Notes: generated by a model not told the origin, from the sequence alone. Numbered from the stretch's first letter, positions 1,701 through 24,221 are shown. The stretch: 64,000 nucleotides of DNA from Obrimoposthia wandeli (GCA_977020255.1 CDROCS010001153.1:310001-374000); one strand, 5' to 3'. Made by a program: numbers and translations.

Positions 1701-3439
1701 ATGTTATATATCGAATTTTTATTACTTTAAGGTGTTTAATTATGAATGTTTATTTATGACAATTCGTTGGCCACTACACTGAGCAATTGTGGACATTTTA
1801 TTTACTTGTCATATTTTATTTACTAGTAAATTTAGAGGTGTTTGGAAGTTTTATGCTCATTATAAAACTCTATTTCAACAATTTTTTGATAATAACTGAC
1901 TCAATACTACATTTTTATTGACAAGATTTTCTTTAGAAATGACTTTTGTAGTACTAGTTACAAGCCTAGGTTTTCTTGTTGTGTTTCTTTACTCTACGCT
2001 AACATCTCTATCTAACACAACTATCTATAATTGTCCTTGGTCGACCTTGTATACTATTTAAAATACAGATAAAAGCTAATTTCTGTATTTGCCTTATTAG
2101 AAGCCGACTTTCTATTAAAATCAGCTCTTCGATATAAAGCCATATTTAGTAGTGAAACTGATTTTAAATCCATCTCCAATATATAGCCAATATCTCTTAA
2201 TAATCCACTGTGTTCTGCCGTGTTGAATTTAATGTTTATGGATATAGGTCGATTTACATTGTAAACTGTTGCTGCTTTCTCGACAAAGCGAAGATTCTGC
2301 AGTTCACGAGGATGAAGAGGAAAACATTGACGATGATAACATTATTGATCGTAAGGAAACAGAATTTTGTGATTCGAATGAATCGAACTTGGTAGGTAAC
2401 TTCCAGAACTGAACAATGACATTACCTATGTTTTTTTGTGAACATATTGTTACTGTGGAAAATTATTCAGTTTTAATTTAATGTTTTATTAATGTTCTGA
2501 CATGTATATTTATCTAACTATCTAATTTTTATTTAAATTTGAAGTGCACTCTATTAGTAGCCCAATCTTTAATATAAGCTCATGTTCACTGGTAAAACTG
2601 AATTAAAGGCTCCGGGCTTCTTTTAGACCAAACACGGTATGCTGTTTTTAAATAACAGAAATGAGCAGAGACAATTTTAGAAACTTACAATGGAACGTTT
2701 TTAAATCGAAATGACAATTTATGTTTTTATTCATACAATAAATTAATTTAATTTTATAATAACTTCTGTACAGTGTTTATAGGCCCATCTGCATTGAGTT
2801 TAAAGTTAATAATGTTCAAATTCAAATCTAATCTATTAATTTGAGATGTTTAATTAATATTGTAAATAACTTTAGAATTTATTTTCAATATATTATATTT
2901 TAAAACTGTTGTTTAATTAAAAGTTATTTAGATAAAACGCATATGATTAATTTTTTTAACTTTCATTTGATGATATATTTCAGATCATTAATAAGTTCAT
3001 TATCAAATAAATATCAGAAATAGTTAATACTGATTCTTCTAAAATATAATAGTTAAAATGATTTATTCTAGTTAGAATAATAATATTACATAAATTAGTT
3101 AACCTAATCATGTTTTTATGTATAAATAAAGTCAATTTTTAAAAAAATTGTGTTTACTACAACAGTTCTTAATAAACTATATTGGTAATTTTAAAATGTT
3201 CAAACAAATTAATAAAAATTAAAATAAAACTTCTACCAAAATATATTTTAACTTTATGCAGATGAGCCAATAAACTATACGAAAGTTCTTATAAAAATAA
3301 AATAATGTTTATGTATGAATATAAATTAAATTGGTCTTTTCGAGCTAAATATATTCCCTTGTTAATTGAAGTTAAAAATAGATAATTCTCCAGCCAGTAT
3401 TGGGAAGTAGGTCTGCAGAAAAACTGACTGTCCACCTAC

Positions 3440-3610
3440 ATTGGCATCGACAGGTACATTCCCAGGCTCCATGTAGAAGACCCTCTCATGTGGCCGCTTG
3501 GGATATTGGGCTTCGTGCAGGAACTTGCTCTTGAAGCAGTGAAACCTATCCTCGAGCTCCTCAATGTACTCCTTGTGGTTATAGCTCCCGGGGGCTAAGT
3601 CGTGTCCTGG
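3440..3610 (-). CDS. CIMAP2/LEXM-like exon 7 (PGHDLAPGSYNHKEYIEEL...PKRPHERVF...)
   Basis: Acceptor TTCTTGCAG, probable donor GTAGGT, 57 codons. Confidence 0.75.
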
Positions 3611-3899
3611 CTGCAAGAATCGGAGTCATGGATCAGGAACTACTTGAATTAATCTAAAATGCACTGATATCAAATATTAAAATTTGTAATTATTTAGATT
3701 TTTAAAATAAATATATATAATTTGCGAAATTCTTTTAGTTATAAATATAGATTTCTAAAATAACATTATAATAAATACAATTTTTAGACCCTTAACACTA
3801 GGATTTCCAATGAATTTATACCCATACTTATTTATAAGTGAAAAACAAAAGACATCACAAATGTATTCATATTAATTGCAAAGGGCTTTTGTAAAAGAA

Positions 3900-4350: not shown

Positions 4351-5858
4351 TATCTGTAATATTTTAGTTCTACTTCATTCAAAATCACCTCTAAAATATA
4401 CTAATCCAATAAATTTCTTTATATAATCTAATTTAAAATATTTTATGTTACCATTTAATTTATCATTCTTTATATTTGAATATTTATGATATATTTGGAA
4501 TTTTATTTCTAAATAGTATATTTCAAGCTGCTTCAATTGAATCAATGTTATTTTCACAAAACGTTTCTGGCCTGGAATTTTAGTGAATATCTCGTGACAT
4601 GTTTCGCAACCTCTACTATAAAACACATCCACATTTTGCAATGTAGTTCCATCTTTTTACATACACATTGATTCCTAATTATCTTTTTCTTTATCTGATA
4701 TTTTGAACTGTCTTTGAGATCAAAATGAACACATTAACAAAACGAGTGAAATTTTGATATTTGAAGTTAATTTTAAATAATTCTAATAGACAAATATAAG
4801 GTTAACTTTAGTGTTTCTGTATCTATACCAAAAAGGTCTTAAAAATAAAAGCATTATATTGTGAGATGGTTAAAATAAAAGTATATTTAAATACTATATT
4901 TAATTATTATATTTATTGATATGATTTTAGTATGTTTGCAAGAGTGATTGAATGAATGCATGATATGCTCAATAACTGAATTATCACATGATATCCCCAG
5001 TCGAAGATCAAGGATAAAAGAAAAAACAGGAACTATCTGTTGTGTGCTTTTGTTTAAATATAAAATTGAAATATGAACGTATTGACTCGAAACGAAACTA
5101 ACATAATATAAATAGCAGACATAGCCAAGGTGATCCCACTGAGAATGTCAAGAACGGTGCTGCAGATTTTCCAGACAATGAATGCTAAAGAAAAAGAATT
5201 TATAAGAATATCAGGAAAACGCTTATTGAAACCGTATTACCCAATAAATATGCAGCATGCGAAGAATTCAAAGCAAAATGTTGAATGTCCTCAGAAAGAG
5301 TAGACTGATCAGACTGATCTCAAGTGCCTAGGTTCAATAGAGGTAATCTCACAGGATTGTCTAATTTTGGCATTTGTCATCGGTCTGTCCAAATTCGTGG
5401 CAAATAGGATTATTATTACTGAAACAACGTGTAGCACATCTTTTGGTGTATGGACTGCATTAGCGAGAGTGCACTTGGGTGAACAGCAAGGTTGTTGCTA
5501 AATAGAGATGTGTTTCAGGATCTCAGATATTGAGCTTAGGTTCAAAACAAAATATATATCCGAAACAATTGAAAAATACAAGTAGGATGTTCCTGAGATA
5601 GGTGTATTAAATCAAACATGGTAAATATAACGAGCTGCAGGCAGTATATCAAATGGTGTTTGAGTAAACGTTGACGAAAATATAGTCGAATATGTATCTT
5701 GATTGAAAAGGAGCCTGGGAGCAGTTCCATAGATGTTGCTGTACCTTTATAAAATAGCTAAATCTAAGAATGTTTGGGGGCTTGTGATGGCAAATTCCGC
5801 AATAGTTCATTGATGGACAACTGCCACTCCTATACAAAGACATAGCGATCGAACTCAC

Positions 5859-6002
5859 CAGAATGGCGTGATGGCCGTATTTGATGGGTCCTAGTCGCGG
5901 TTCACTATCGCAGTCGTAGCGGTTCCGGTGACCAACACGATGCTGAAGCAGCTCGTCAATACTCTCCTTAACCTTGTATATTCCAGGTCCCACGCTATAC
6001 GC
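5859..6002 (-). CDS. CIMAP2/LEXM-like exon 6 (AYSVGPGIYKVKE...RYDCDSEPRLGPIKYGHHAIL)
   Basis: Acceptor TTCTCTTCACAG, donor GTGAGT, 48 codons. GPGxY...VGxR..YD..S..R..P..YGH pattern as in LEXM. Confidence 0.8.
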
Positions 6003-7440
6003 CTGTGAAGAGAAAAATGAAAAGAGGCGTTAATACTGTGCTTCTAGAGAGTCCACTGTTCAAATTTATTGTACATTGAATGTTGATTTTGTAACAATGA
6101 AATTCAAAATATAAAAAGGCGGCCTTTTCACAAATGAAGATAACAAAGCCAAGATACAGGACACTTAAGGCAATCTCCTCAAACGGACCTCGATAGTTTT
6201 CTCAAAATATGAAATTTCAATTGTCCAATTAATATCAAATTATTTAAAAGCTGTATTTGTAAAAAATGTATTAATTTATCTTTAACTTTGATTTATTGTG
6301 CTTTTTTTATTTATCTAATTTTATGGGTTTTTAATAGCGTTAATCGTCAAGACGTTTAAGTCTATATAAACAATTGTCGCGTCAATAAGTCTGATCAAGC
6401 GTGCTTTACTTGATATTTTCGAAATGTAAAAATCACCTTATATTTAAATATTACAAAAACTTAATAATAGTTTTTAATAAAAAAAATACATTTTCTTATA
6501 GCGTAATATATTCTCAGCTTTGTGCTCAATAGATATACAGAATTGAATCGAATACATTTATTATAATCTCTGATATAATGGAAATTTAGCATTATATAAA
6601 GTTTTATGATGGAGAAGTTTTTTATTTCAATGCAATTATTGTAAATTTCTTTTAGTAAAATAGGTATATAAAGTTTTGTAATTAATGTTTAAAACAGGCT
6701 AATGTATGTCCAGTGTTTCACGTTAAAATAAGTCATATTGTTGTGTTCCACAAAAAATTATAAATTGGTATCTAGTCCCATTTTTTTCTCAAAAAATACT
6801 AAATACCTCGTCAATTCTGCAAGGTTTTACACATTCAACTGTCTATATAAATATATCACACGAACGTAAACTGTGTAAAAAATAACCGCTAAATTTACAG
6901 TGTTTGTAGTCATTTTCTTTATTAATTAGCACTAATGAATGTTTATGTACATTTTTAATCAACGGTTCTTTGTTTTTAATGATTTTTAACTATTTTTAAT
7001 AAATATTTTTAATTTCAATTACATCATTTTAAATGTCATAAAATAATCTTTTATTAGATATTCATTTTATTAAGTAAATTATTTTTTAATATTTTGGTTA
7101 AGATGAAAATAACTGAATTACAAATTGGAGGCTTCTTAAACTGTCGTCCCAACATAAATCGGTATCCCGAGTGAGGATAGTTTTGATATTAATAAATTTT
7201 TTAAAAGTTTTGTATATATATTATATAGACATCAAAAAAATGTTGTAAAGAATTTTGCAAATATATTTTATAGATCAAGAAAATCGCTGGCGAGGATATA
7301 TACCTTCTTTTTTTGGAAATTGTAAAGTATAGTGAATTTCCTTTAGAGTGAATTCCTAATAGTGGATTTATATCGAATAATTGTGTTATTTATTTATATT
7401 TTCCTCATAAGTAGCAGCAATAAAATCGTAAAAATATTAA

Positions 7441-7446
7441 CCGAAT
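7441..7446 (+). repeat. Left 6-bp target-site duplication CCGAAT
   Basis: Identical to 21800-21805. A 6-bp TSD is typical of Maverick integrases. Confidence 0.95.
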
Positions 7447-7742
7447 AGTAGGTAGATGTGGCACTTCTGGAACAAAGCCCCCCCCTGAGGACAACATTTT
7501 TTAAGGTCAAGTTGAGGACAAAAAATGTAGGTCAAGTTAAGGTCACGGTGAGGTCAAGATGTAGGTCATGACCTCATGAGGTCATGGGAAAAATCTAGGT
7601 CATGACCTCATGAGGTCAAGTCAAGTTAAGGTCAATGTACTTTAAGGTCAACTTAAGGTCATGACGTCATGAGGACAACTTAAGGTCACGGTGAGGTCAA
7701 AAATATTCTATTTTTAGTAACATTCTTTAAATCTATATATCT
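7447..7742 (+). repeat. Left TIR (perfect 7447-7494, then an imperfect AGGTCA-rich extension)
   Basis: AGTAGGTAGATGTGGCACTTCTGGAACAAAGCCCCCCCCTGAGGACAA is the exact reverse complement of 21752-21799. Patchy homology continues to TTTTTAGTAACAT..AAATCTATAT. Confidence 0.93.
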
Positions 7743-8089
7743 TTTTATCTAAAGACTGTATTAACACCAATTCAACAAAATACATCTAGTGTGTGTGTGT
7801 GTGTTTTATAATTTAAATTAAATTATCTACTTATAAAATAAAGTATTATATAATTTGATAAATTTATTTAAACTAAATTAAATTAAACTATCTACTTATA
7901 AAATAAAGTATTATATAATTTGATAATCATGTTTAAACGTTCCTATATCTATCTAACAAAGACAGTCACGTACTGCATCTATATTGCAAAAACCTGCAAA
8001 TTTATGTAAATAAAGACAAGTATTTCAAACACATATATTCCTTAAAATCACAAAGGAGAATAAAAATATGTACAACACATATAAAATGT

Positions 8090-9710
8090 TTATACAACCT
8101 CGTCCGGGTATAAAAAGTGACCATAGGCGACTGAACGGTTTTTCTCCATCCACTTGCGCTTATCATCACTACTACTTAAGGCAATTTTACTTAACCTTAC
8201 AGTGAAAAGTTGATGATTTAGCGAGCTTATACGTTGTTGTTGTACACGCTCGCTAACGCCACTCTCATATACGGCTAAGTAATTAGAGTGCCTAATACTC
8301 GTCTGTCGGAGACTAATACCTTTCGCTCTCATCTGAGATTCACCTTCTGTAGTCTCTAGGCTATATGATTTTGGTCGTAGAAAAATCCCTTGCCTATAAC
8401 TAATTAATCCCTTACTCTCATCTTTAAATTTTCCTATCGCTGTATTAAGCGTCGTATAAAGCGGATGGGTTTTTGGAAATTTCGAGGTATCCAACAGTCC
8501 ATCAGCAATCATAGCAGGTAACAGTGATTCTTGAACATTGACATTATTACACTTCAAGAAAAAGCTATCAGTGTCACCCGCTATAATTCTAATGTCGCAG
8601 TTAAATTGAACTCGATATTTCTCCAACTGCTCATATTGTAGCTCATACATACGAAGTTTGCTTAAATCTAATACCGCCTGGCCCATGTAACTAGGACGAT
8701 CCAAAACAATATTTTCCTTATCCAGTAAAACTGCAATAAGGTCCGTATCGATTTCGATTGTCCTACGAAAGTGGGCTTTACTGCAATAGGTAACCAGCTT
8801 CTGTGGAGTATTACAAATCCGGAGGTTAATTCTTTTCATCAGATTCTCAATGAGTTTTCCAAATAAAGAATTCACCTTCAGTTTATAATAATCCCGCTCG
8901 AAATCTGTTGTAGCCGCAGCTCTTTTGAGAGAATTATCCTCAATATATTTTGAAAAAACATTAGTTTGTTCAAACTGTATTGCTCTATATACAAAATCTA
9001 CCTTAGCACCAAGTCTAACGTACATTTGTAGCAATCTAGAATGCACAACATAATGTTTCTTAGGGTAATGCGTTAATAACAATTTTTCAGTGTTACACCC
9101 TGGTGGATTTTATTATGAAGCTCGAAGGGAATGGATAAATCTATTTCCAATAAATGAGCGAAGCGACTACAGGATAAATCTGCTGATTTTAAGCTGGAAA
9201 TAATATTCCCCAACTCTAACCGATCAGTCAACCAGGAAAAGTTACCACAAGGTAAAAACTGGGACATAGCCCACCCGTACAAATTATTTACATCAATGTA
9301 CAAAAGTTCTGTACCATTGATGGCGTCAACGCGGTGTTCATTAACAAATGTCATACCCCCGCGAATCCCAGACCGGAAGAGTCGGTACATTTCTGGATCC
9401 TGTATTAGCTCGACTCGCACAACGGGAGCAGAAGAAGAAGCCGGACGAAGCAGGGATTTGAAAGCACTCGCGAAAGTCAGTCCTGGAAATAAAATCATTT
9501 ATTAAAATCATTGTGAAAATCATTACTTTGAAAATCATCTATCTAACAAAGACGGTCACGCATCTATATTGCAAATACTTGCATCTTTATGTAATCAATA
9601 GTAACATTTATTCTTGTATATATATATGTGTGAGTATCTAACAAAGACAGTCACGCATCTATATTGCAAATACTTGCATCTTTATGTAATCAATAAAAAC
9701 ATTTATTCTT

Positions 9711-9746
<36 letters not shown>

Positions 9747-12400
9747 GTATCTAACAAAGACAGTCACGTGTGTGTCTAACAAAGACAATCATCAATACTT
9801 ACAAAGACGTGCTGCATCTATATTGCAAAAACCTGCATCTTTATGCAATCAATAGTAACAAGTACTACACTTATTCTTATACATGTATATATATATATGT
9901 GTTAGTGTCTAAAATTAGAAAAATTAGTAAAATACAAACCAGGGATGGAGAAGAAATTGAGTGGCTCCAATCCATCGTCAGCAATGGCCTTGGTCCGGAA
10001 TGCTGTAAACACGTCTGCTAGAAGGTAGACGTCCATCTTCATATAGACCAGCATATAGTCCCAGAGCGATGAGCAGCCGCTCTGAGTCCAGACCATCTTC
10101 GCCATTTCATATTGTGCTGGCTTGATCTTCTCATCCCACTTTGGCGGTAAGCTATTGATTGCGCGAAGAGCAGTCTCTGATACTGCCATATCGTATGGGA
10201 AGATTCCCTTGGCGCTCACCAGATTTTGCGGGAAGACCGAATGTGTAAGAGGAGTCACACCCAGGTTTTTCACAAGTTTTTCTAAGCTGCTGTTCAAAAA
10301 TTGAAGGGAATCGATGAAACGTATACAGACTCCTCCAATATACACCATCATAGCCTGGAATTTCTCTGTTGATTGAGGTATAACAGATACATTCCAGTCG
10401 GGAAACTTGCATAGTGCGTGCTTCAATATGTGGTGCATGTCATAACCCATAAGATTGTGAAAAATGACGGGAAAAGATCGATTGATTCTCCTTGATAAGT
10501 TGCATTTCGTATGCGCTGCTCCCAGGTATTCGCCAGTCATGTGATCGTGATCTCGAACTTTGTTTGCGAGTTTCTTCTTACACAGATAACAGATTCTTGC
10601 TGCATTGAAACTCGATACCTCTTCCTGTGTGAGTTGTCGCATCACCTCGATCGCATGCTTCTTGTACCATGGGAGTACAACCTCTTTCGCCAAGTCCTCT
10701 AATTTCTGCAAAAAGGATACCACACAAGATTCTCCGGTAAAGACCGAGTAATCATGTGTGTACCCTCTCGTGGCTGCAATGGGAGACATGAGCATACCGG
10801 CCGAGATTGGAAGTTGAATCTGATGGTGGATTCCATGTGGTGGCAGCACAGCCTCAAAGTCCGCGTAAACAGCAAAAGGCGGAGAAATCGTTTTTGAAAA
10901 GTCCTTAAACTCAATATGCTTCTCTGTAGGCATTGAATAAAGCGTTGTATGATCTAAATTCATCCTACAGAGTGGAACGTGTTTAGCGTAACTTATTGGT
11001 CTCCGGAAGCCATGAAGACACTTATGGCACCAAGTACACCGAATGCAATTAGATACACCTTTGTTCCTATAATTAAGCAGCCTATTGAGTTTAGGAATAC
11101 CGACATCATGAAAATTATCATTATTTTCTAAAAGGAGAAGATTGATTGGCTTAGCGTCCGGGTTTGTGGTTCTGTAAATGACATCCACATAGGGATTTTT
11201 GAAGATATCCCCATCTGTTTGCACATTAGAGAACCTATTGAATGTAAATACGTTGATTGAGAGAGATGGATTCTTTCTCTCAAATCGCGGTATATTACAT
11301 AGACGCATCGGCATCTCATTCTCATCAAAAACTAATTGACTCAAAAAGGCATCATATTGATTAACCCGATGAGGATTAGAGCGAAATACTTCACGGAAAA
11401 GTACAGATAAGATACTGTAAAGGAAGCAAAAAGCGTTTGAGTTCTGCACATTGATAACGCAATGTGACAGTGCTAACTCAGATGGAGTAGGTATATAACT
11501 ACTTCCCTGGAGATAGTTCATTGTTGTTGTTTTAGTCACAACAAACGAAATCTCCAGGAAGCGGTTCACTACCCAATTACTGCTACTTTGAGAATAATTC
11601 TCAATATTCTTGTTGATTCCATCTACTCCCGCATCTATAAACCCCTCATCTATGGGGAGCCCTCTATTGGAAAAATTCCAAGCGCGTGTTTCTCCAATAT
11701 TGGAAAATTCAACACGCACCCCGAATTGGACCTTGCAAGTCGCAAACTTGCTGACTGTGTCCCTTAAGCTAGTCAAAAGGGATACAGGAACTTGTAAATC
11801 GATGAGATTGTCATTAGAAACATCTAATGACAATGTCTCAATCGTGCCCCGAAGACTAGTCTTTCGCTTAACAGCATCAACCCTGGAAAACTTCGCAACA
11901 GAGCTACCTGAAGTGGGCATAACACTTCTCTTGCGGGTAGATGCTGGTAACGGCGCGAAGATCATACCAACTGGAGGAGGCATAACTGGAACCATTGGTG
12001 CAGCAGATGGTGGCGAAGCAACTGGACTAGTAACTGGAACAGCAGCAGGGGTAGATACTGGAACAGCAACAATTGGGGCAGCAATTGGCGAAGCAGCAAC
12101 AACTGGACCAGCAACCCGAGAAATAGTAGCAGATCTATTCTGAAAGATGGCCTTCTTGCCACGTTGCTGGAAATGACGAAGATGGACACGATGACGCGCC
12201 ACAAACTCCGGCCAATCAATCTCCTCCGCGGAGAGACATACTGAACATACGTAGAATTGTTGTCCGTTGAACTTCTGTCCAAAGTAGCTCTTCATCTTTC
12301 CGTCACATTCCTTGTGACTCTCCTCGAAGCATAATTCTTTGTTCATATTGCAATTCTAGAAAGAAATAAATTAGCAGAAAAATAACAATAAACTTACCAT
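8090..12400 (-). CDS. Protein-primed family B DNA polymerase (pPolB), about 1270 aa when spliced; two introns and one frameshifting deletion
   Basis: Exons 12398-12400 (ATG), 9940-12355 and 8090-9482 (frame break at 9107-9108). ExoI YADFE, ExoII HNLMGYD, ExoIII YMKMD, EndoVII-like CYLC..RDHDHMTG..AHTKCN, motif A IDVNNLYG, motif B KLKVNSLFGK, motif C GDTDS. Confidence 0.93.
9483..9939 (-). other. pPolB intron 2 (457 nt, phase 1), filled with tandem subterminal repeats
   Basis: CCT G|GTTTGT...TTTTATTTCCAG|GA CTG ACT. Splicing restores the conserved FFSIPGLTFASAF..ELIQDPEMY..F..GIRGG segment with no residue lost. Confidence 0.85.
12356..12397 (-). other. pPolB intron 1 (42 nt, phase 0, directly after the ATG)
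   Basis: ATG|GTAAGT...TGCTAAT...TTTCTTTCTAG|AAT TGC AAT ATG. In frame after splicing; the unspliced form has an in-frame TAA. Confidence 0.75.
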
Positions 12401-12531
12401 TTTCAATTTCGTTTATAATAGGGGATTATTTGTTGATTGATGCTTGCTTATATACTATTTTCGAGCTAGTATTAAGCCAATCAGATTCATTCATAATTTA
12501 AACTAACCAGAATAATTTAAAACAGAATAGT

Positions 12532-13041
12532 TTACTGACAGATGTGAGTAGTTGAATTTTCATTAATATTTAAATAATCCAAACTAGCTGCAAAGCATTT
12601 CTTGTATGCACAATGCTCGCCATGTTTAATATATGGACAATTGATATTTGATGGATTTAATTGTTTTAATGTTTTCGAATAATTTATCACTCTAAATTCA
12701 GGAAAATATTTATTGATTGTCTTTATTTTAGCTCCATTATACTCATTCAAAACATAGAAAATTGATTTGGATACATCACAACAACGTTTTATTTCCTCAG
12801 TTATTTCTTGTATCTTGAAATAACTATTACCATCAACTAGTTTTAGTCGATGGTAATGCTTAATGAGATATCTATTTATTTTTCTTGATTTTCTATTCAT
12901 CATGTCCCATATGGGTTGCATTTTAAAAACATAATGTTTAGGATAGAAGATTGCATCCACATCCATTATACATAGTTCTTTTATTACAAATTCAGTATTA
13001 TTATCAATAAAAGCTTCAAAATCAATAAAATAAACAGACAT
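12532..13041 (-). CDS. Maverick accessory protein, DEDD-exonuclease-like (169 aa)
   Basis: Intact ORF. N-terminal IDFEAF..FVIKEL (ExoI-like DxE) and C-terminal C..H..HCA..C cluster. Recognised by motif only. Confidence 0.55.
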   Translation of the reverse strand: MSVYFIDFEAFIDNNTEFVIKELCIMDVDAIFYPKHYVFKMQPIWDMMNRKSRKINRYLIKHYHRLKLVDGNSYFKIQEITEEIKRCCDVSKSIFYVLNEYNGAKIKTINKYFPEFRVINYSKTLKQLNPSNINCPYIKHGEHCAYKKCFAASLDYLNINENSTTHICQ

Positions 13042-13077
13042 TTTTATAGCAATAATTTTATTTGATATTGTTTATAT

Positions 13078-13455
13078 CTATTGTTTATGCTTTAACCAAA
13101 GCTGACAGAGTTGTCCACATGACTGTGTTAAAACATTTTGATAATGTTTCTTACTAAAATGTACTTTCTTTCCAGAATCAAGTACTGTAGATACTAATTT
13201 AGAAGGGTAATATATCCCAAAGGGGTCAAAAACAAAGATTTCATTTTCTTTAACATGTATTGCAATCCAATATTCACCACGCAAATTAGATGAATGTGTA
13301 TTGATTACATATCCACCTAGTCGAGTCAAAGAGGGGATGTGATCAAGGCTGTAGACTCCATTGAAACGCGAACCGAGTAGTTTTCTTCCGCTTTTTGTTA
13401 TCTCGTCCGAACTAGAATATATATTAATTAATAAATTCAAACTGACTTACTTCAT
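13078..13455 (-). CDS. Adenain-like (C5) cysteine protease, spliced (112 aa); catalytic His replaced by Tyr
   Basis: ATG AA|intron|T TCG GAC gives MNSDEI...FNGVY..D.IP...VINT...GEYWIA...FDPFG...YQ....CGQLC. Confidence 0.9.
13412..13450 (-). other. Protease intron (39 nt, phase 2)
   Basis: ATGAA|GTAAGT...TATTAAT...TTCTAG|T. The unspliced form reads ATG AAG TAA, and there is no other ATG near the N-terminus. Confidence 0.8.
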
Positions 13456-13491
13456 TTATATATCTTCTTTATTGTTTTCATTCTGTTTATA

Positions 13492-14713
13492 CTAGTACTG
13501 TTCCTCCTTGGTAATTTGAACCTCAGAATCGAATACTCCATAGATTATAATATTAGTAGGGTGTTCAAGTGCTTTTGAAAACTTGATTTCTACTTTCAAA
13601 TTTCCCTGTTTAGGGATTTGAGCTTGATTAATATCGAAATCAGGAGAGAACAAATGTGAACAGTGTATACTTGTCCTTGAAATCAGTCATTGAAATTCCA
13701 ATATTAGCATCCTTATCCAAATGACCAAGATTTCTAATTAAAGAGTGCACATAAGAAAACACATAATCATCGTTTTCAAAGTCATTCGTATAAGATTCTT
13801 GATAATCAATATTTCGTGCAAGTTTAATTGAACTCACATTCATGTGTCCAAATTGAGAAACCTCATTTTTAGACTCACCTCCATAGGTAGACGTGTTTTG
13901 GAAAGCAATTAAAACAAAGTTTGGAAGTTGCATATCACCAAAAATCTGATCCTTGTAATAAGATAGTGCTCCCGTAGGGATAGCGTGAGAAACAAGATTA
14001 GTTTTTCTAATAGGATAACATGCATTTTGCTTCTCCAACCTCATTCGATGTGCAACAAGTACAGATGGTTCCACCTTTACTCGTCGAACCAGCAGTTTTG
14101 CTTCCGTAATCTCAATTGCGGTTTTAATAGTATCAGCGCAAACAACACTAAAACCTACTGGATTTCTCTTCATTCGAATATGTGCACTTACACCGGGTAA
14201 AATATACTTTGGTTGCTTAAAGAAATCCAAATGGAGACTCCCACAAAGTGACAATACTTTAGACTTTGCAATCGAAGCAAATCTTCTTTTTTCATCATTG
14301 TCAAACCCAATTGCATCAAGATTAATCAATTTCGTATCATTACCGTAATTCAACAATGTTTCAATCATTGCTTTATGGGTGTAACTAGTATTATTTCCCT
14401 CAACTTTCACATTATTGAGACTGAGAATCACATCCTTGAAAAGAGTATACAACATGTAATTAGCTGATTTGATATCCATACCATCATCCAAATCACCTCC
14501 ATCTTCCTTTGTAACTTTCAATTTAACGAGAAATAAACTATCATTCAAATCAAGATATTGAGTATTGGATCCATTAATATTGAATTCTAAATCCGGAGAA
14601 GATGTCCCGTTAACCGTATTTGTTGGAAATATTTCTTCAAAACTAGCACTATCAACCACAACCTGAGGTATAGGTTTATCGAATATACACAATTCAGTTT
14701 TAGCACAACTCAT
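13492..14713 (-). CDS. Major capsid protein (double jelly-roll, F54H12.2-like), frameshifted near 13645
   Basis: CAKTELCIF...LEFNINGSNTQYLDLNDS...GSLHLDFFKQPKYILPGV. The C-terminus (SPDF...KQGNLKVEIKFSKAL...IYGVFD) continues in another frame after a net 2-bp loss in CTCTCC. Confidence 0.85.
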
Positions 14714-15075
14714 TACTTAAAAATTGTTCCACCTAGTTTCAAACGTTTGTTTATACCCGATGCTTTAGATGTTTTCTTACGTTTATAACCACTTCCCTTT
14801 TGAGTTTTCTTTTTCAAAAATTCAGCTAGACTTGGTGAAATTTCATTCACCTGATCCAAGGCTGCATCCTTTAGTGTAGGAAGAAATTTTTCATCACCAG
14901 ACAAGTATTTTGATCCAACATTAGCAATATATTTCCCGAGTCGCTTGAGTAGTGGGAAAGCAAAGCGACCAAAAACCTTCATCCATCCTGATCCATACTG
15001 TTTTCCGGCAAAATAAGGCAAATCACCTCCTTGCATCGGTTTACTATACGCATCGATTATACTTGAATCAATCAT
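14713..15075 (-). CDS. Basic virion core or membrane-active protein with QxGxG/MQGG motifs (120 aa)
   Basis: MQGG, QYGSG and QKGSG motifs, amphipathic GWMKVFGRFAFPLLKRLG, Lys-rich tail. Its stop overlaps the MCP ATG (TAATG). Confidence 0.65.
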   Translation of the reverse strand: MIDSSIIDAYSKPMQGGDLPYFAGKQYGSGWMKVFGRFAFPLLKRLGKYIANVGSKYLSGDEKFLPTLKDAALDQVNEISPSLAEFLKKKTQKGSGYKRKKTSKASGINKRLKLGGTIFK

Positions 15076-16100
15076 ATTTTTCTAAAATGTATTGTTAAAC
15101 TTGTTTTAGCTCCAAATGAAAATTTAATTAATCTTCCTGAATCATCCCGAATGTTAACTTCAATATTGTTTATAGAAGAAGAACTCACAGGAATATACAT
15201 TGGATTTTCAATTGGGATATGTATAATATCTCCATACTTGTGCTTTTCCTGTTGAACCCAAATAGATTTTATTAATGGAAGTTTATTTCCACCCACAAAT
15301 ATCGGTTCAGTAATACTTGTGTAAATATAAATCTGATTATACGCATTACTTAGCTTTGCCCGATTAGATGCTCGGAAAACTTTATTAAGATTTTTAAAAC
15401 TGTTTTCATTGAATCCTATAATTGTAGCTAAATTTTTATCCATATTTATTTCTTTTACATGTGGTTTCAATTTAAACTCAATTATCTCCTTTTTAACATA
15501 AAAGCTTTCAAATATATTATCAATATTTTTCATGAAATATTGACAAACACTTTCAACATTGGAAAATAAGCAATCATTTTCGAATGCATACTGCTCACGT
15601 ACATCCTCTTGATTATAATGATGCATCTTTAACTTTAATGTCGGTAAATCATATTTTTGATTTGGTAATTCCGATTTATAAAACATACTTTCAATAGGAG
15701 CTTCTTTCATACCGTAACTTAATGCTAAACTTTTATTATCAATTTCTAAATTGAAAGCTTGTCCCGTAGTGCGAGTTATACAAATTTTGTTTTCGCCGCT
15801 AAGGTAAATAACATATTTACTATTAATTGGAGTTAAATACTTGACGAAAAATTCTCCATGTTTCATTTTCACACCAGCTTCAACTTCAGTTTTTATTCTT
15901 TTCTCCGCAACATAATCTATAATTGACCCTCCTTTAATGGATAGAGGAGAGTAATTGAAAGAAAATTCCGTCAGAGCAGCTTCCCAATGCACAGGTAAAT
16001 TGATTGAGCTTTGATAATCAATACTAAAACTATTAGCTGTATTATTCGGCTGAGTTAATGGTGAACCATTACTTGGTAATACAACATACATTGAGTTCAT
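15072..16100 (-). CDS. Minor capsid protein (penton, single jelly-roll) with a central insertion domain (342 aa)
   Basis: N-terminal YVVLPSN..P.NTANSF..WEAALTEF; C-terminal IYIYTSITEP..VG..LIK..YIPV..IEVNIRDDSG..F..LTIHFR. ATG 16100 overlaps the INT stop (ATGA). Confidence 0.85.
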   Translation of the reverse strand: MNSMYVVLPSNGSPLTQPNNTANSFSIDYQSSINLPVHWEAALTEFSFNYSPLSIKGGSIIDYVAEKRIKTEVEAGVKMKHGEFFVKYLTPINSKYVIYLSGENKICITRTTGQAFNLEIDNKSLALSYGMKEAPIESMFYKSELPNQKYDLPTLKLKMHHYNQEDVREQYAFENDCLFSNVESVCQYFMKNIDNIFESFYVKKEIIEFKLKPHVKEINMDKNLATIIGFNENSFKNLNKVFRASNRAKLSNAYNQIYIYTSITEPIFVGGNKLPLIKSIWVQQEKHKYGDIIHIPIENPMYIPVSSSSINNIEVNIRDDSGRLIKFSFGAKTSLTIHFRKI

Positions 16101-17127
16101 TCTATTTGAGAAGCTAATATCCAACTAGGTTCAGTATATCCATGCCACTTAACATGATATTGTTTATGCTTTCCTCTACCTTTTGTCTCTAAAATTTCTT
16201 GGATTCTATATACATTTGGTTTCTCAGGCAAGACTTGTAATTCCTCATAATAAAATTTACCCGTGATTACATTATTGGTTTCATCCTCAATGAAATACAT
16301 TACCGGCATACGTTTATTATCAATTTTAGTTATACGAAATACTTCATCGCTCCAATTCTCTTTGAAATTCTTTATAAAAGGAGTAGTACTAATTTGAGAA
16401 ATACGTACATAATCACCAACTTTATACTTGGGTTTCTGCGCAACTTGACTTTGGTTACGGCGTTGCCAAATTTCCATAGCATTCTCATCTGTAACATCAA
16501 CGGGTCTCTTTCGGTCTAATGATGAGTGTTCACTATGATTGTATGCATGTATTATTTGAGATAAAACAGTAACCCAGGACTTATTTCCCTGCTTTGTGAA
16601 ATACTTTTTCAAACGATCTCTCAATGTTCGATTAAAACGTTCAACTAAAGCGGCTTTATATTGGGAAAATACTGAGTAATGATTAATATTATGTTTTTTC
16701 AATAGTGTTTCAACATGTTTATTATAAAACTCCTTTCCACTATCCGTTTGGAAATTTCTTGGTTTTATTTCTTTAATCAAAAGCTTCATTGCGGTTAAAA
16801 CATCGGTCTAACACTCTTGGACTTTAATGGAATAGCTCGCGCGAATCTGCTAAAGACATCAACACAAGTTAAAATATATCGATATCCGTCGTTAATACTC
16901 GCATACGGAATCATTTCCATCAAATCTGCTTTCCATAAATCATTCGGGCCGCTCGTTTTGTATGATCTCGTTCGGAACCGACGTCTCATTGGTTTGTTTA
17001 AGCTGTAAGCTAATTGATTTCTCAACCACGCCTGAGTTTCCTGCTTTGTCTTCTTTGACTCTTTTGCTAATTTTGAAACCCCTGTGTAACCAACGGGATG
17101 ACTTGGATCGAACCATATTTTCTCCAT
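16097..17127 (-). CDS. Retroviral-like c-integrase with C-terminal chromodomain, frameshifted at about 16810
   Basis: DDE triad in ADL / QTDSG / VERFNRT; chromodomain YRIQEIL...YHVKWHGY. A 2-nt insertion splits KSKSV|TDVLTAMK. Confidence 0.92.
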
Positions 17128-17224
17128 TGCAGCAAGACGATTTGATTTTTAAATTGAATTTAGGAATAGATGGAAGTGATCCCATATATAAATTCATATT
17201 ATTGATTCGAATTTATGTTTATAA

Positions 17225-17570
17225 TCATCGGTTTATTAGTCTACTAGCAAGTGCACCAACTATTGAGCTAATAATTGGTACGAGAAATCCTAAAAATCCA
17301 CCACTTTGCTTATAAAGCAACTTACGTTTACCGATTCGTGTTTTGGCATGAAACAAAGCAAGTAGAGGTTTCTTATGCCGATTCAGGTTAGCCTCGACAA
17401 TTATTTTACCAGAAACTATTTTCTGTATCATATTAAGTAAATCATCTATTACAAAAGTAGGGAATGATTTAAGAATAGCTGGGCGGCGAATAGCAGGTGC
17501 ACGCATGAGAGAATTGAAATAGGCAATACTCCTAGATTTCTTAACAACAGTTCTTTTCGATTTTGAGCAA
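17225..17570 (-). CDS. Small conserved Maverick protein (PW-like) with QSGGFLGFL amphipathic C-terminus; start uncertain
   Basis: R..ILK...I.DLLN.I..IV.G.I...KRKLLYKQSGGFLGFLVPII pattern. The frame is open upstream of ATG 17506 to about 17595. Confidence 0.6.
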
Positions 17571-17642
17571 CCATTTTCCTTGCACTTAAAACTGATTTAA
17601 TCAATTTTTTAACTTCGGGTTTAACAGTTTCCTTTTTAAAAT

Positions 17643-18289
17643 TCATCTTCTCAAAACTGGTTTCTTTGTTTGTTTATAGACGGTTATTCCCGATGGATTG
17701 AATACATCAGTTCTAACTCTAAAGTCATCGGGACAATCTTGAGTAAAATCAATAAAAATGTATCCATGAGGAATAGTAGTTGCATCTTGAAATGAATCAA
17801 TTAAAAACTTTCTATTATTCGGGTAAGCTTGTCTTGAAACAAAATCAACAACCGTCTGATCACGTGGATTCTTGAAGAGAACAAGGTAATGTACATTTAA
17901 ATTACGAGTTCTATGGTTCCATAGATCTATAGATTTTGTGTGATGAAAATAACAGTTACTTCCTGATGTCGTGCTATTTTAGTGAATAAATTATTGAAAT
18001 CACTCTCTTTATTTGCTTCTTGATATAAATCATCAATAACAATAACATCATGTCGTTGTAATCGCTCAGACCAATTATCATCGAATCCATTAATGACTTT
18101 TATATTTTTGATTTTCTTAAACTCTTTACTGGTTAAACCAGCTTCTCCATCTCCTCCCTGATGCCAGTATATTTTATTAAACTTAAAACTAAAGTATTTA
18201 TTATTTTGCAGTAATTTACATACAAAATGTGTTTTCCCACTACCACAAGGACCTACAATCTGAAAAACTGAATTATTTTTTAAGTTCAT
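17643..18289 (-). CDS. A32/FtsK-like genome-packaging ATPase, disrupted at 17915-17930
   Basis: Walker A GPCGSGKT, Walker B VIVIDD, then ITQNL*. The second half (HRTRNLNVHYLVLFKNPRD...HGYIFIDFTQ...RVRTDVF) is in another frame and ends at TGA 17643. Confidence 0.9.
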
Positions 18290-18332
18290 ATTAAAAATAT
18301 TAGATTATCGGGATAATGTTTATAAGACAAAA

Positions 18333-18611
18333 CTATTTAAAATATTTTATTACGAAACATCCAGCAACAAACAATAAAAAACTCTTCTCGTAGAAAAAGC
18401 TCCTTTTCTCTTCTTTGTTTGCGAGTTTCTTCTGATTGTATCCCTGAATGAGAAGATTGACTGCCTTGTCGTGCACCATTCTTCTTACGTGCTCCTCCAG
18501 GGGTAGATTTGAGACATCAATGAGTTGCAGGACATCTGGTTCTATGAAATTCTTCGAGATGAAGCTCTTCACCGCCTTGTCAACATCTTGTTTGAAATAG
18601 TTTTTAGACAT
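18333..18611 (-). CDS. Hypothetical 92-aa protein with C-terminal hydrophobic segment
   Basis: ATG 18611 preceded by TAGTATATAAGCA; ends FLLFVAGCFVIKYFK. Confidence 0.55.
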   Translation of the reverse strand: MSKNYFKQDVDKAVKSFISKNFIEPDVLQLIDVSNLPLEEHVRRMVHDKAVNLLIQGYNQKKLANKEEKRSFFYEKSFLLFVAGCFVIKYFK

Positions 18612-18680
18612 AATGATGATGAAGAAGTAAAAAGTAATCTGCTTATATACTATACATCTGAAATCTGATTGGTTAATAAA

Positions 18681-18860
18681 GACTAATAAAGACACTAAAG
18701 ACACTGAATAATAAAGACACTAAAGACACTGACTAATAAAGACACTAAAGACACTGACTAATAAAGACACTGACTAATAAAGACACTGACTAATAAAGAC
18801 ACTGACTAATAAAGACACAGATTAATAAAAACACTGACTAATAAAGACACTGATTAAAGA
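18681..18860 (+). repeat. Tandem array of a roughly 16-bp unit (GACTAATAAAGACACT) with AAAGACACT sub-repeats
   Basis: Directly visible. Confidence 0.9.
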
Positions 18861-18876
18861 TAAAGACGAATAAAAT

Positions 18877-19671
18877 TTACACATGATAACGATTAAAAAT
18901 ACGTATTTGATGAAGCATAGCTTCATTAGGAGCAGCAATAGTCCGTTTAGCTTTAACAAGATTCGAAGCAGCAGTAACACCAATCGAATGAGATAAAAAT
19001 GCAATAACAATGCAAGCAGCATGTAAACTACCATAATGACCACATACTAAAATCTTACCACCATTTTCGATAGTTTCTTTAATTATATTATTAGTCTGTT
19101 TATAATACTTCATTATTGTTTCTCCTAATTTTGAGTTTACAAAGACAGAAGTATATTTTAATTTCTTATAAGATATTTTATCCAGTATAGATGTATTGAT
19201 TACATGAGTGAAATTGGAATTCAAAAGATTAGTTTCATCAAACCCATCTCTATAATTACCAATATATAATTGATTTACTAAAATCTCACTCATCGCTATT
19301 TTGTTTAACTTTTCTACATTAAGTTGAGTAAATCTAGCACTAAACAAACTATCAAAAAGATGGGTCATGTGGTTCATTTCCATACTCGAAGCATGAGCTA
19401 TTATGGGTTCCATAAAAGCCAAAGCATTTAAAAAATCTATCCGTCTCTTATCTTCAATAATTGGATCTATAATAATTTCTTCTTCTATCGTCACTTCATC
19501 AATAGTTTCTTCTCTTCTTATAACTGTTGTTGTTGTTGCTGGTGGTGATGATGTTACTGATGATGTTACTGATGATGTTGCTGGCGATGATGTTGTTGGC
19601 GATGATATTGCTGGTAGTGATGATGTTGCTGGCGATGATGTTGCTTCTGGTGCTGAATTGATTTTCTCCAT
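18877..19671 (-). CDS. Dual-specificity-phosphatase-fold pseudophosphatase with Ser/Thr/Pro-rich N-terminus (264 aa)
   Basis: QLYIGNY..THVIN..KILVCGHYGSLHAACIVIAFL..VKAKR..APN..QI aligns to the DSP pattern LYLG..THILN..KVLVHCxxGxSRSATIVIAYL..VKxKR..PN..QL. Confidence 0.85.
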   Translation of the reverse strand: MEKINSAPEATSSPATSSLPAISSPTTSSPATSSVTSSVTSSPPATTTTVIRREETIDEVTIEEEIIIDPIIEDKRRIDFLNALAFMEPIIAHASSMEMNHMTHLFDSLFSARFTQLNVEKLNKIAMSEILVNQLYIGNYRDGFDETNLLNSNFTHVINTSILDKISYKKLKYTSVFVNSKLGETIMKYYKQTNNIIKETIENGGKILVCGHYGSLHAACIVIAFLSHSIGVTAASNLVKAKRTIAAPNEAMLHQIRIFNRYHV

Positions 19672-19704
19672 TTTATCAATTCCGAGTCAATTTAGTCTTA
19701 TATA

Positions 19705-19947
19705 TTAAACAAGGTTTGATTTCATTGGAGCATCAGTTTCATCATATGATTTGATTGGAGTATTATTCAATATTTCCATTGTACTTAACATCTCATGTAA
19801 ATGTAGTTGATGACGTAACCTAAAGAGTTAAATAAACTACATATAAATATTACTCATGATTATTTTTCCTAATTAAAGCATTGAGAATAACTGAAGCAAG
19901 ATCTTTTAATGCATCCTGAACCTCTTTACATTCAATAATTTATCCAT
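19705..19947 (-). CDS. Putative 69-aa spliced ORF (34-nt intron 19820-19853; needs one extra base after ATG GAT AA)
   Basis: CAT GA|GTAATA...TTTAAC TCTTTAG|G TTA CGT joins two stop-free frames: IIECKEVQDALKDLASVILNALIRKNNHE and LRHQLHLHEML...SNLV*. Confidence 0.4.
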
Positions 19948-20108
19948 TTTATGATAAAGCAAATCAAATATTGTTTATAACCCATGAAAAATCTATTTTT
20001 AGACCACAACTATTTGCAACATTACAACGTTTGCAACTATTTGCAAGTAATGACATGTGATGTCTTTGTCTTAGTATAAACAATATTTTGATAATGATTT
20101 TATTGAAA

Positions 20109-20309
20109 ATGGATAATCAAAATAATCAAAATAATGAAAGTAGAGCTAGTACATACATAGGTTTCGGTAGTAATTTATATTCTAATATGAATTATAATAG
20201 AAATAATCAGAGAGAAAATATTAATCCATCAAGTCAAACAATAACAAGTCCTACGCGCGTAACCGAAGAACGTGAGCCCTTTAAGGATATGACTAATACT
20301 AGACGATAA
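20109..20309 (+). CDS. Hypothetical Asn/Ser-rich protein (66 aa)
   Basis: ATG 20109 preceded by TAGTATAAACA; C-terminal REPFKDMTN. Confidence 0.45.
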   Translation: MDNQNNQNNESRASTYIGFGSNLYSNMNYNRNNQRENINPSSQTITSPTRVTEEREPFKDMTNTRR

Positions 20310-20422
20310 ACAAGAATGTTAACCAATTGAGACTAATCGATTTTCATAAACAAGAATATCGACCAATTAGAATCGAGCTTTAGAGGAAAAACAATTGAAT
20401 ATTTCAATTTATAATTGTCAAT

Positions 20423-20811
20423 ATGAATTTCGAAAAGCTATATCAACCTATGCATACATATTATGAATATGAGATGCACTTTTGAAGAAAGCTCATAACT
20501 ATAATTTTATTTTTCCTGTCAACATCGAGCCGCTTAAATTTGATTTTGAAATATCAAATTTGACTTCTGTGGATAAAGAGAGAATCAATATTCTCTTGAC
20601 TCAATTCGGAATCAACTATGCGCTTCAGGAAAACAAATTCGTAATCAAAGGATCAACTGCCACTTTCAAGCATGAGAATGGAACAATATACGAAGCACCT
20701 CCTCCTAAGCTAGAATGGATTATCTCAATCAGAATTCAAGGATGCAAGATCGGACCCAGTGGATTGGAAACTCCGATATGGAAAATAATTGATGCTGTTA
20801 GAGTTGACTAA
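20423..20811 (+). CDS. Hypothetical protein of about 129 aa (frameshift near 20472), possibly beta-rich OB-fold
   Basis: MNFEKLYQPMHTYYEY joins DALLKKAH...WKIIDAVRVD if one base is restored. Confidence 0.55.
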
Positions 20812-20878
20812 TAAATTTTTGTGTCTTTATTTGTATTATTTTATATATATAAACAATAGTGATACTTTAATATTTATT

Positions 20879-21246
20879 ATGAAAATGACTAAAAAACCTA
20901 CTAAATCATTAAAGACTAAGGTTAAAAAGACTATGAGTAAAAAGACTATGAGTAAAAAGAAAATCATGGAGGGTTTGGGTATTCATATGATGGCAGAAAA
21001 AATCTTTTAGGTAGATGGTTTGGCGGAGTTGATAAAAAAGCTATAAAGCACAAAAAGAATGTGGATTATTTGAGAGGTATACAAAATCAGAAACGAGTGC
21101 AAAAAGGAGATGGTATACAAAAAGGGGATGGTATGCTTGATATTTTTGTAAAATTAGATAAACTTACAAAAGCATTTGAAAAGGATCCTAGTGCCTATCT
21201 TGGTCCAAAACTAAACTTTTTAGCAAACCGACCAAAAACTTTGTAA
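20879..21246 (+). CDS. Lys-rich basic core-like protein with protease-site motifs (frameshift at the T-run 21006-21009)
   Basis: MKMTKKPTKS...KKTMSKK x2...MEGLG...|LGRWFGG...QKGDGIQKGDG. Confidence 0.6.
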
Positions 21247-21384
21247 TTACATTGCAATATAGATGCAGTACGTCTTTGTTAGACACTCACATATATATAT
21301 ATACATGTATAAGAATAAATGTTACTATTGATTACATAAAGATGCAAGTATTTGCAATATAGATGCGTGACTGTCTTTGTTAGA

Positions 21385-21799
21385 TAGATATAGATTTTAA
21401 GTATGTTACTAAAAATATAATCTTTTTGACCTCACATGACCTTAAGTTGTCCTCATGACGTCATGACCTTAAGTTGTCCTCATGACGACATGACCTTAAG
21501 TTGACCTTAAAGTACATTGTCCTCATCATGACCTTAAGTTGACCTTAACTTGCCTTGACCTCATGACCTACATCTTGTCCTCATCGTGACCTTAAGTTGT
21601 CCTCATGAATTTAAATAAAAATCATGTGTACTCGGGAGAAATTTGACCTACATCTGTCATAAAAAATTTGAGTTCAAAAATTTTCGCGCAAATTTCAAAA
21701 TTTGACCTAAATTTTTTGTCCTCATCAAAAAATTTGACCTACATTTTTGACTTGTCCTCAGGGGGGGGCTTTGTTCCAGAAGTGCCACATCTACCTACT
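21385..21799 (-). repeat. Right TIR (perfect 21752-21799, imperfect and longer extension)
   Basis: Reverse complement of the left TIR, with extra TGACCT modules. Confidence 0.93.
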
Positions 21800-21805
21800 C
21801 CGAAT
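21800..21805 (+). repeat. Right 6-bp target-site duplication CCGAAT
   Basis: Identical to 7441-7446. Confidence 0.95.
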
Positions 21806-22165
21806 TTTCTTAACAAAGAAATATAACGAATTTATTTTGATTTTTTAAAAATTGAGTGAAATTGTTTAGAACTAAATTTGCTTTAATCGATAAATATTGA
21901 AGCAATATATCGAAGTTATTGTAATTATGCATTTTACATGTAATATTGATAAGTGATTTTGAATATTTATTTGTGAATTTATCGTGACAGAGTAATTTTT
22001 GAAATTTGATAATTTACAATTTTTATACTTTATTGTACTGATAAACTTCTTGTGAAGCGACATCATACACTATTTTAATAAACATTTTGTAAAGGTGAAT
22101 GTGTTTTTTAAAGGAATGAATGTTAATGTTAAAATAAAACTCGATGTATTTTTAAACAATCTCAC

Positions 22166-22309
22166 CGATTTAAAAAACTCCCGACCGGATTTCCCACCTC
22201 TCTTCAATAGTCCCACTGTGTTGCAGTGTTTTCTGCGTTGATTCGCCTCGTACAACGTCTGATCTGCGATGCCTCCTTTGCCATAAGTCCCCGGTGCCGG
22301 GAAACAATC
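22166..22309 (-). CDS. CIMAP2/LEXM-like exon 5 (DCFPAPGTYGKGG...FFKS)
   Basis: Acceptor TTCTTTTAG, donor GTGAGA, 48 codons, PAPGTYG motif. Confidence 0.8.
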
Positions 22310-23262: not shown

Positions 23263-24104
23263 AATGAAAAATTTCGTGTTCCGGACAAATTATAACTTTT
23301 GCACAGGCTTGATTGTACCAACATTAAACTTCAGACAAAAACAGATTTTTTTAGTGTAAACTTTCCCATATTGTAAAAATGAGAAATAACATAAAAATGA
23401 CAATTATACAGAAATTTGCTTTAAAAAGCCTCAGTCGCAAATGTATTTACTATTTCATTATTATTACACAATATAACAAAAACTAACTAAATATTATTCA
23501 TTATTTAAGATGCTAATAGATTTGCCATTATTTATTGTTTCAATTTTTATGTTTTGAGCTCTAGAACGCATTTGTCGTAAGGTTGCTAATGCTCTCTCGA
23601 CAATTTCATTTGTCATACTAACGCTTAATTTGGGCCGTTGCGTATATTAGTGTTTTTAAGAAATGTATAACATGTTGTTTCATTTTGTACTGATTCCCAA
23701 AGAGACTTCCACAAATCTAATACTTTTTCATAAGACCTGTTTATCCATAAATTCATCCACGCACCAGTTAAAAAATTATAACATCTGAAAATAATATAAT
23801 TAATGCAATAATTCATACTAAGTCCAAGTAAAGACGCCTTTAAAGCAAAAATAGCTCTTAAATTCCATCTTGCTTCATATTTGTTTTTTCTCAATAAGTG
23901 TAACAAATACTGAAAGCTTCAAGTTCCTAGTAGTAGTTTTGAGATATATAATATATCCTACATTCTTGGACTGACTGGGACTGTTTAACTAAATTCTATC
24001 ACAAAAAAGTAGTTGCCATTTTAAGATAAAACGAGTATTTTTAAACTTTTCTTTTGGTAAATAACAAAATAGGTACATTAATTTTAATTTTTCCATCTAC
24101 TCAC

Positions 24105-24221
24105 TCTATTTATTGCTCTGAAACGACAATTCCTAGACTGCATAGACACCGCCGCATTGTGTTCGTTGGCATCTTCGAGAAACGTTGTATACTCGTACTT
24201 ACCTGGACCCATACGTCTTTT
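24105..24221 (-). CDS. CIMAP2/LEXM-like exon 4 (KRRMGPGKYEYTTFLED...RFRAINR)
   Basis: Acceptor TTTTTCACAG, donor GTGAGT, 39 codons, GPGKY motif. Confidence 0.75.

Follow-up and report, generated by a model that had tools for sequence, protein, structure and literature searches.

A putative intron in the polymerase gene of an Obrimoposthia wandeli Maverick appears to be built largely from the element's own terminal repeat module

The core genes of intact vertebrate and nematode Mavericks are described as intronless (PMC8097293; bioRxiv 10.1101/2022.07.12.499685), which is a reported property of these elements and not a strict definition. Dinoflagellate maverick-polinton-like elements contain introners (PMC11957031), cryptophyte polinton-like viruses contain group I introns (PMC12220804), and the accessible portion of a nematode Polinton survey mentions introns only in connection with a group I origin of HNH (bioRxiv 10.1101/2023.08.22.554363). 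In the eri-6/7 locus of C. elegans, direct repeats derived from Polinton terminal inverted repeats (TIRs) drive trans-splicing (bioRxiv 10.1101/2024.01.15.575659). Intron gain with filler DNA is known from break repair, and the source of a new intron sequence is usually untraceable (PMC3443670). Here we describe a Maverick/Polinton in a 64,000-nt stretch of Obrimoposthia wandeli DNA (GCA_977020255.1, CDROCS010001153.1:310001-374000, hereafter the window), whose polymerase gene, pPolB, departs from the intronless pattern in having two predicted introns. We concentrate on intron 2, most of which can be traced to the inner ends of the element's own TIRs. Positions are counted from the first letter of the window, and feature coordinates are collected in Table 1.

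The case for intron 2 starts from its boundaries. Its minus-strand splice ends, the donor G/GTTTGT at 9939 and the acceptor TTTCCAG/G at 9483, are those of a U2-type spliceosomal intron, and removal of the sequence between them would rejoin a conserved reading frame, the split interrupting the glycine codon in IPG, a conserved motif. For 16 of the 19 nearest proteins the alignment breaks off at about 9935 and picks up again at about 9486 with contiguous residue numbers, and the other three end before the site. The interrupting sequence contains 17, 11 and 9 stops in its three frames and its length is no multiple of 3. A search for group I, group II or structured RNA returned six Rfam matches in 7400-10100, all far under the gathering score, and the predicted RNA fold is nothing unusual (z -1.25). 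The first 31 nt of the intron (9909-9939, minus strand) end in CTAAT...TTTTAG, which resembles a proximal acceptor; its use would retain the repeat array described below in the message. As for intron 1, none of the close relatives displayed has an intron after the pPolB ATG.

Between 376 and 389 of the 457 nt of intron 2 (82-85%) derive from a repeated unit. The head of the unit, CTAACAAAGAC, is found at 9543, 9638, 9751 and 9776, and again at 7953 on the plus strand and at 21272 and 21373 on the minus strand. A first-pass annotation of this DNA had counted about four copies of the unit; the four heads are indeed present, but they do not head four units, as the array consists of three full units (I1, I2 and I3) and two head-only pieces of 25 nt. 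The units headed at 9543 and 9638 measure 95 and 113 nt, a difference that is mostly due to a (TA)n run. The near-identity to the right end of the element that had been claimed is borne out by local alignment: 9635-9730 and 21291-21386 are 98% complementary over 96 nt, and 9537-9627 and 21299-21389 are 96% complementary over 91 nt. The likeness to the left end holds as well, at 78-84%. The unit had been placed just inside the TIRs; it does lie at the TIRs, but as the inner end of a long imperfect repeat and not as a sequence beyond it.

The alignments also show how the copies are related to one another. Compared with the right-arm unit, I1 has 96 identities, 2 mismatches and one 6-nt gap, I2 has 94 identities and 2 mismatches, and I3 has 92 identities and 7 mismatches, while the left and right arms share 79 identities, with 12 mismatches and 9 gap positions. 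By this measure the right arm is more similar to I1 and I2 than to the left arm. In orientation the intron copies agree with the left arm and are inverted relative to the right arm, and the duplex predicted for the right arm with I1 and I2 has an energy of -107 and -103 kcal/mol, respectively, as compared to -57 kcal/mol with the left arm. Against the right arm the core of the second unit reaches a score of 144, as compared to a maximum of 36 among 30 shuffled elements.

All 64 of the 83 related loci that cover the intron 2 site are uninterrupted there and none is split; the other 19 fail the coverage criteria. At the protein level, 191 of 242 related proteins span the site by at least 18 residues, 3 fall short of it and 36 have no match. 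A search for the same intron in the 242 proteins found 12 that stop near the junction, none of them with the motif followed by an unrelated tail; P0139 terminates exactly at the proline, an ambiguous case that is probably due to the end of a contig, and the divergence of P0229 begins a few residues further on. The protein collections were obtained by open reading frame (ORF) calling, so spliced genes are under-represented in them. A blastn search of intron 2 against the 83 loci gave only two short AT-rich matches. Since all covering loci are uninterrupted, intron 2 is, as far as these relatives indicate, a lineage-specific gain. Two intron-like gaps at other positions (4875-5082 and 5490-5585, of GC-AG and GT-AG type) are found in a distant pPolB, L056.

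It had been foreseen that the unit might prove to be a common host repeat, or the duplicate an assembly artefact. Two words of the unit, with 14 and 6 occurrences in the element (14,353 bp), are both missing from the 49,647 bp of host flank, so the dispersed host copies expected of an introner or of an intron derived from a miniature inverted-repeat transposable element (MITE) are locally absent. The reads come from four runs (X1-X4) of one sample, possibly the source sample, in which the gene is present, and their contigs were aligned to 6900-22300, with 161,699-203,465 contig pieces aligned per run. Summed depth is about 100,000 over the element and 0.06-20 on the flanks; even though summed contig depth does not equal copy number, the family is very large and diverged. 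Such abundance is unusual for an animal Maverick. The depth of the intron bin is 56-60% of that of the neighbouring bins; of the 514 bases in the bin, 97 were passed over as repetitive. At position 9768, which lies between the head-only pieces, the summed depths in the four runs are 55k, 26k, 22k and 22k, comparable to those of the non-coding position 12512 (43k, 24k, 17k and 9k), and a 2-nt deletion at 9768 is present in 18-24 contigs. No joint skipping intron 2 is among the 15 with the best support, beyond which there are 1,016 others and some uncounted ones. Two joints of low depth (7979-9567 and 7984-9569) tie the left-arm unit to I1, and are either arm variants or rare deletions between direct repeats. 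Because the unit is absent from the flanks and the read family includes variants of the intron, the unit is not a host repeat here and an artefact is unlikely; the intron array is element-specific and probably family-wide.

On balance we lean towards the view that a short intron was gained in pPolB and was then enlarged by in-cis copies of the TIR-end module. A short spliceosomal intron would first have arisen in pPolB of this Maverick lineage; a module of about 100 bp from the inner TIR end would then have been inserted into it in cis, most simply through template switching or strand invasion when the ends are paired in strand-displacement replication, and tandem slippage would have multiplied the module. 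The pairing step draws on protein-primed strand-displacement replication: if the ends paired on the displaced single strand, the right arm would come to lie against the left arm and the intron alike, and this pairing could explain the high identity. The intron copies would be recent or still homogenised with the right arm, and may persist mainly because splicing takes them out of the reading frame. Freed of the array, the intron would shrink to about 80 nt; as intron 1 has 42 nt and the splice ends of intron 2 are not TIR-like, a short precursor is plausible. That terminal DNA was copied in cis is supported by three observations, namely that the unit is element-specific, that the intron was gained and that I1 and I2 are nearer to the right arm, and template switching is a plausible route.

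Several points weigh against this account. Firstly, both the splicing of intron 2 and the order in which gain preceded growth are deduced from genomic sequence; among the relatives, the nearest of which are less than about 50% identical, there is no short-intron or intron-free sister lineage, and the tree, a quick version, does not fix the sister lineage. Secondly, I3 has left-arm-type letters in one word, so that the donor was not the right arm alone; these letters imply more than one copying event, or polymorphism of the arms. Thirdly, the module is patchy, as just 3 of the 15 close loci outscore every shuffle in the test given below. Finally, the contigs are short and none spans the array, which means that the number of units is that of the assembly; right-arm contigs can align to the intron, about 1,016 joints stand beyond those considered above, and the four runs represent one sample.

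The nature of the unit can be judged from its internal order and its distribution. TG[CT]A words recur within it every 10-11 bp. When 9-mers in common with the unit cores were counted in 8,951 search windows (overlapping words inflate these counts), the top 7 windows all fell in one non-coding tandem module of the relative L011, with 14-21 words, and those ranked 8-9 lay just past the pPolB stop of L003, with 14 words; no other window had more than 10, and the host flanks had no more than 7. In the first kilobase past pPolB, L003, L011 and L020 were the 3 of 15 close loci that beat 100 of 100 shuffles, and none of 25 distant loci did so, the best being L055 at 1/100; 3 of the 43 loci were too short, and the test was run after L011 had been noticed. 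A search of viral contigs gave 0 matches to the two-word unit pattern and 29 matches to a 16-mer, none of them in a contig with a tblastn match to the ORFs of the element. The occurrence of module words in non-coding DNA of relatives and near promoter-like sites fits protein-binding sites better than an RNA signal, and the module probably represents a long-standing cluster of transcription-factor sites, although the factor names we would attach to its words are presumptive.

This bears on the first alternative, which we hold to be possible but on the unlikely side, namely that the intronic array is a selected internal enhancer, laid out like the homologous regions (hrs) of baculoviruses, that raises or tunes expression or gives a packaging edge among sister copies, the element having multiplied its terminal module for this purpose. 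Support for the enhancer half of the first-pass proposal is circumstantial. Ten copies of the head word form an array at 18.6 kb, ahead of a CCAAT/TATA-like promoter, and the word also stands with three TTTGCAA words in a divergent region at 20.0 kb. In L011 the words make up a non-coding tandem module that precedes a likely gene start, the spacing within the unit is regular, and the array is apparently widespread in the family. On the other hand, the order and orientation of the words in L011 are unlike those of this element, the module near pPolB is absent in most close relatives, and the wide spread may reflect descent from one master copy. Adenovirus packaging repeats offer a possible analogy. 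With the same reserve we speculate that the array might be a working enhancer (or packaging signal) as well as a third TIR arm that pairs with the right end and is kept homogeneous by it, and that it might have helped the family to its very high copy number.

It seems decidedly unlikely that a captured terminal fragment created the intron de novo by giving or activating both splice sites. No covering relative has an intron at this site, the right-arm match reaches 9524 and 9912 so that little else is left, and the junctions form a near-repeat (CCTG/G and CCAG/G). However, the splice ends do not match the arms significantly better than shuffled sequences or host windows do. The score of the 27-nt donor end against the arm edge is reached by 519 of 5,000 shuffles and by 909 of 3,308 host windows; the 54-nt acceptor end is matched by 944 of 5,000 shuffles against the right arm, and by 248 of 5,000 shuffles and 121 of 1,772 host windows against the left arm. 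Short flanking repeats are also common at old introns (PMC3443670). Because the splice ends have no significant likeness to the TIRs, a short intron that was gained and then grew is the better fit. Of the earlier suggestion that the intron arose or grew by capture of terminal DNA, the copying in cis is supported, and 'grew' is more apt than 'arose'.

A further possibility, and a very doubtful one, is that the unit is a 3'-end signal, so that its intronic copies would cause early polyadenylation and yield a short terminal protein-vOTU-exonuclease product or a damped polymerase output. All copies have, relative to the gene, the same sense as at the 3' ends of the two terminal genes that point outwards; the first AATAAA past the stop of the right gene lies in R1 and is kept in I1 and I2, and the intron lies between the exonuclease and polymerase motifs (domain order as given in bioRxiv 2024.03.18.585575). 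Yet AATAAA arises in 19% of shuffled units, the left-arm copy at the 3' end of pPolB has no AWTAAA within 200 nt, and the head word of L011 is antisense to pPolB. A sense TGTCTT follows the pPolB stop in 3 of 15 close loci as compared to 1.2 expected, which is not significant (6 of 47 loci were too short and were dropped from this poly(A)/terminator test).

Alternatively, the sequence might never be spliced and might represent an inactivating insertion in a dead copy, an artefact of the assembly or a repeat of the host, which we consider highly improbable. Frameshifts in several genes of this copy would suit such a reading; however, the GT-AG ends are exact and excision between them would restore a conserved motif in frame, many contigs have variants inside the intron, and the 49.6 kb of host flank are free of the unit. 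An internal replication origin of the baculovirus hr kind, also proposed at first pass, is barely credible: the layout is comparable, with repeated units at three sites and a short imperfect palindrome, but the palindrome has 5-bp arms as against the 24 bp of hr palindromes (PMC4535591), and pPolB is described as carrying its own terminal-protein primer domain for initiation at the ends (bioRxiv 10.1101/2024.03.18.585575), from which the unit, lacking the terminal motif, lies 413-503 bp inside.

The element itself is complete from end to end, yet several of its genes are frameshifted in this copy. Its TIRs are perfect over 48 bp and imperfect to about 560 bp, its ends are of the AGT type with a 6-bp target-site duplication, and it has both pPolB and an rve integrase. 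In a Pfam search pPolB gave DNA_pol_B_2 in three pieces, rve and rve_3 both fell under their cut-offs, and the putative packaging ATPase gave a weak Pox_A32 match; the integrase piece is 56-58% identical to that of the metagenomic relatives L003 and L008. The remaining core ORFs have no Pfam match but are syntenic with these two relatives, and on the usual gene order they would include the protease and the major and minor capsid proteins. A cargo gene (18877-19686, minus strand) encodes a dual-specificity phosphatase (Pfam DSPc, E 6.5e-13) with a Ser/Thr/Pro-rich N-terminus. Both TIR arms contain strand-polarised arrays of AGGTCA words (7504-7700 and 21432-21745), all 28 of the element being located in the arms, and beside these arrays each arm has one TGACGTCA; the former resemble nuclear-receptor half-sites and the latter a cyclic-AMP response element. 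Among the relatives, an intergenic region of L003 (13242-13405) holds two adjoining imperfect palindromes with a TGCAAAAA-type word as in the unit, and a 25-nt sequence of L008 (7803-7827) is repeated in inverted orientation where the contig ends (12812-12938), there as a 33-nt tandem array, which may be similar in-cis copying or an assembly effect.

Elsewhere in the window, a 154-bp near-perfect palindrome at 61456-61609 has termini like those of a Maverick, agreeing with the large element at 13 of 14 terminal bases, and is flanked by a 6-bp target-site duplication of its own; it is likely a non-autonomous Maverick-derived MITE. The DNA around the element is AT-rich. Probable host exons on the minus strand (3365-3625, 5652-6029, 22073-22309 and 24087-24260) have PG.Y-type words on both sides of the element, which suggests that it sits inside an intron of a SHIPPO-repeat-like host gene; the SHIPPO label is tentative, and these exons have no Pfam match. 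None of 29 candidate host ORFs in the window has a Pfam match at cut-off, and the one host exon searched gave no homolog. The host DNA also contains a tandem array of 20 copies of 46 bp (57247-58185) and a two-copy tandem duplication of 367 bp with 99% identity (44602-45320).

Table 1. Coordinates of the pPolB introns, the unit copies and the element that carries them.
Feature	Position	Strand	Remarks
pPolB last exon, polymerase motifs	8090..9482	-	frameshift near 9100-9110 in this copy
pPolB intron 2	9483..9939	-	457 nt, GT-AG, phase 1; splits IPG motif; splicing predicted
pPolB exon 2	9940..12355	-	N-terminal region, Cys/His motifs read as vOTU, exonuclease motifs
pPolB intron 1, predicted	12356..12397	-	42 nt; directly after ATG at 12398-12400
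Intron 2, acceptor end	9483..9536	-	own short AATGATTTT micro-repeat; not significantly TIR-like
Intron unit I1, full	9537..9634	+	
Intron unit I2, full	9635..9747	+	long TA run
Two 25-nt head-only pieces	9748..9797	+	
Intron unit I3, full	9798..9912	+	variant head; left-arm-type and right-arm-type letters mixed
Intron 2, donor end	9913..9939	-	not significantly TIR-like
Left-arm unit copy, diverged	7947..8038	+	orientation as intron copies; just 3' of pPolB stop
Right-arm partial unit R2	21246..21285	-	abuts stop of last plus-strand gene
Right-arm full unit R1	21284..21393	-	best match to intron units
Tandem array of head word (CTAATAAAGACAC type)	18677..18875	+	about 10 copies; between phosphatase gene and CCAAT/TATA-like promoter of core-gene block
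Divergent intergenic region	20010..20075		three TTTGCAA words and one head word
Maverick/Polinton element	7447..21799		14,353 bp; termini AGTAGGTAG-type; several genes frameshifted, pPolB among them
Left target-site duplication	7441..7446	+	6 bp
Right target-site duplication	21800..21805	+	identical 6 bp
Imperfect TIR, left arm	7447..8009	+	48 bp perfect end, then AGGTCA array, about 200 bp arm-specific insert, unit
Imperfect TIR, right arm	21252..21799	-	

For more than four fifths of the gained intron, the donor can be placed 1.6 and 11.5 kb away, within the same mobile element. As many diverged copies exist in one genome, gain, growth and homogenisation could be put in order from long reads. 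If splicing proceeds as predicted, Maverick core genes can be spliced, and an annotation blind to introns would miscall them as broken. The unit is also a candidate cis-regulatory module for Mavericks, and we found little in print on such modules. Should the intronic copies be neutral, the locus would be a tidy but modest case of local repeat turnover.

It is useful to compare the locus with the systems described so far. A literature search, made outside Repbase entries, subscription papers and supplements, found no description of a TIR-derived Maverick intron. The element resembles other animal Mavericks/Polintons in its TIRs, 6-bp target-site duplication, AGT-type ends, pPolB, rve integrase, putative packaging ATPase and a size within their range; it differs in the two predicted GT-AG introns of pPolB, one of which is largely its own TIR module. 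With the baculovirus hrs (PMC4535591) it shares AT-rich repeated units at several sites and possibly an enhancer role, but here the sites are the TIR ends and one intron of a linear, end-primed replicon. As in gain by break repair (PMC3443670), there is a new intron whose bulk has a traceable donor and a weak junction repeat; the differences are that the donor is the element's own end, that the copy was amplified in tandem and that the splice ends cannot be traced to this donor. The dinoflagellate elements likewise have spliceosomal introns within them, but introners are intron-generating transposons of the host, whereas here the bulk of the intron is element-derived and absent from the host flanks. 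The eri-6/7 case is alike in that Polinton TIR sequence with putative transcription-factor sites is reused in a splicing context. The setting is different, since in eri-6/7 TIR remnants serve the trans-splicing of a host gene, while here the copies would lie in the element's own, presumably cis-spliced, polymerase gene.

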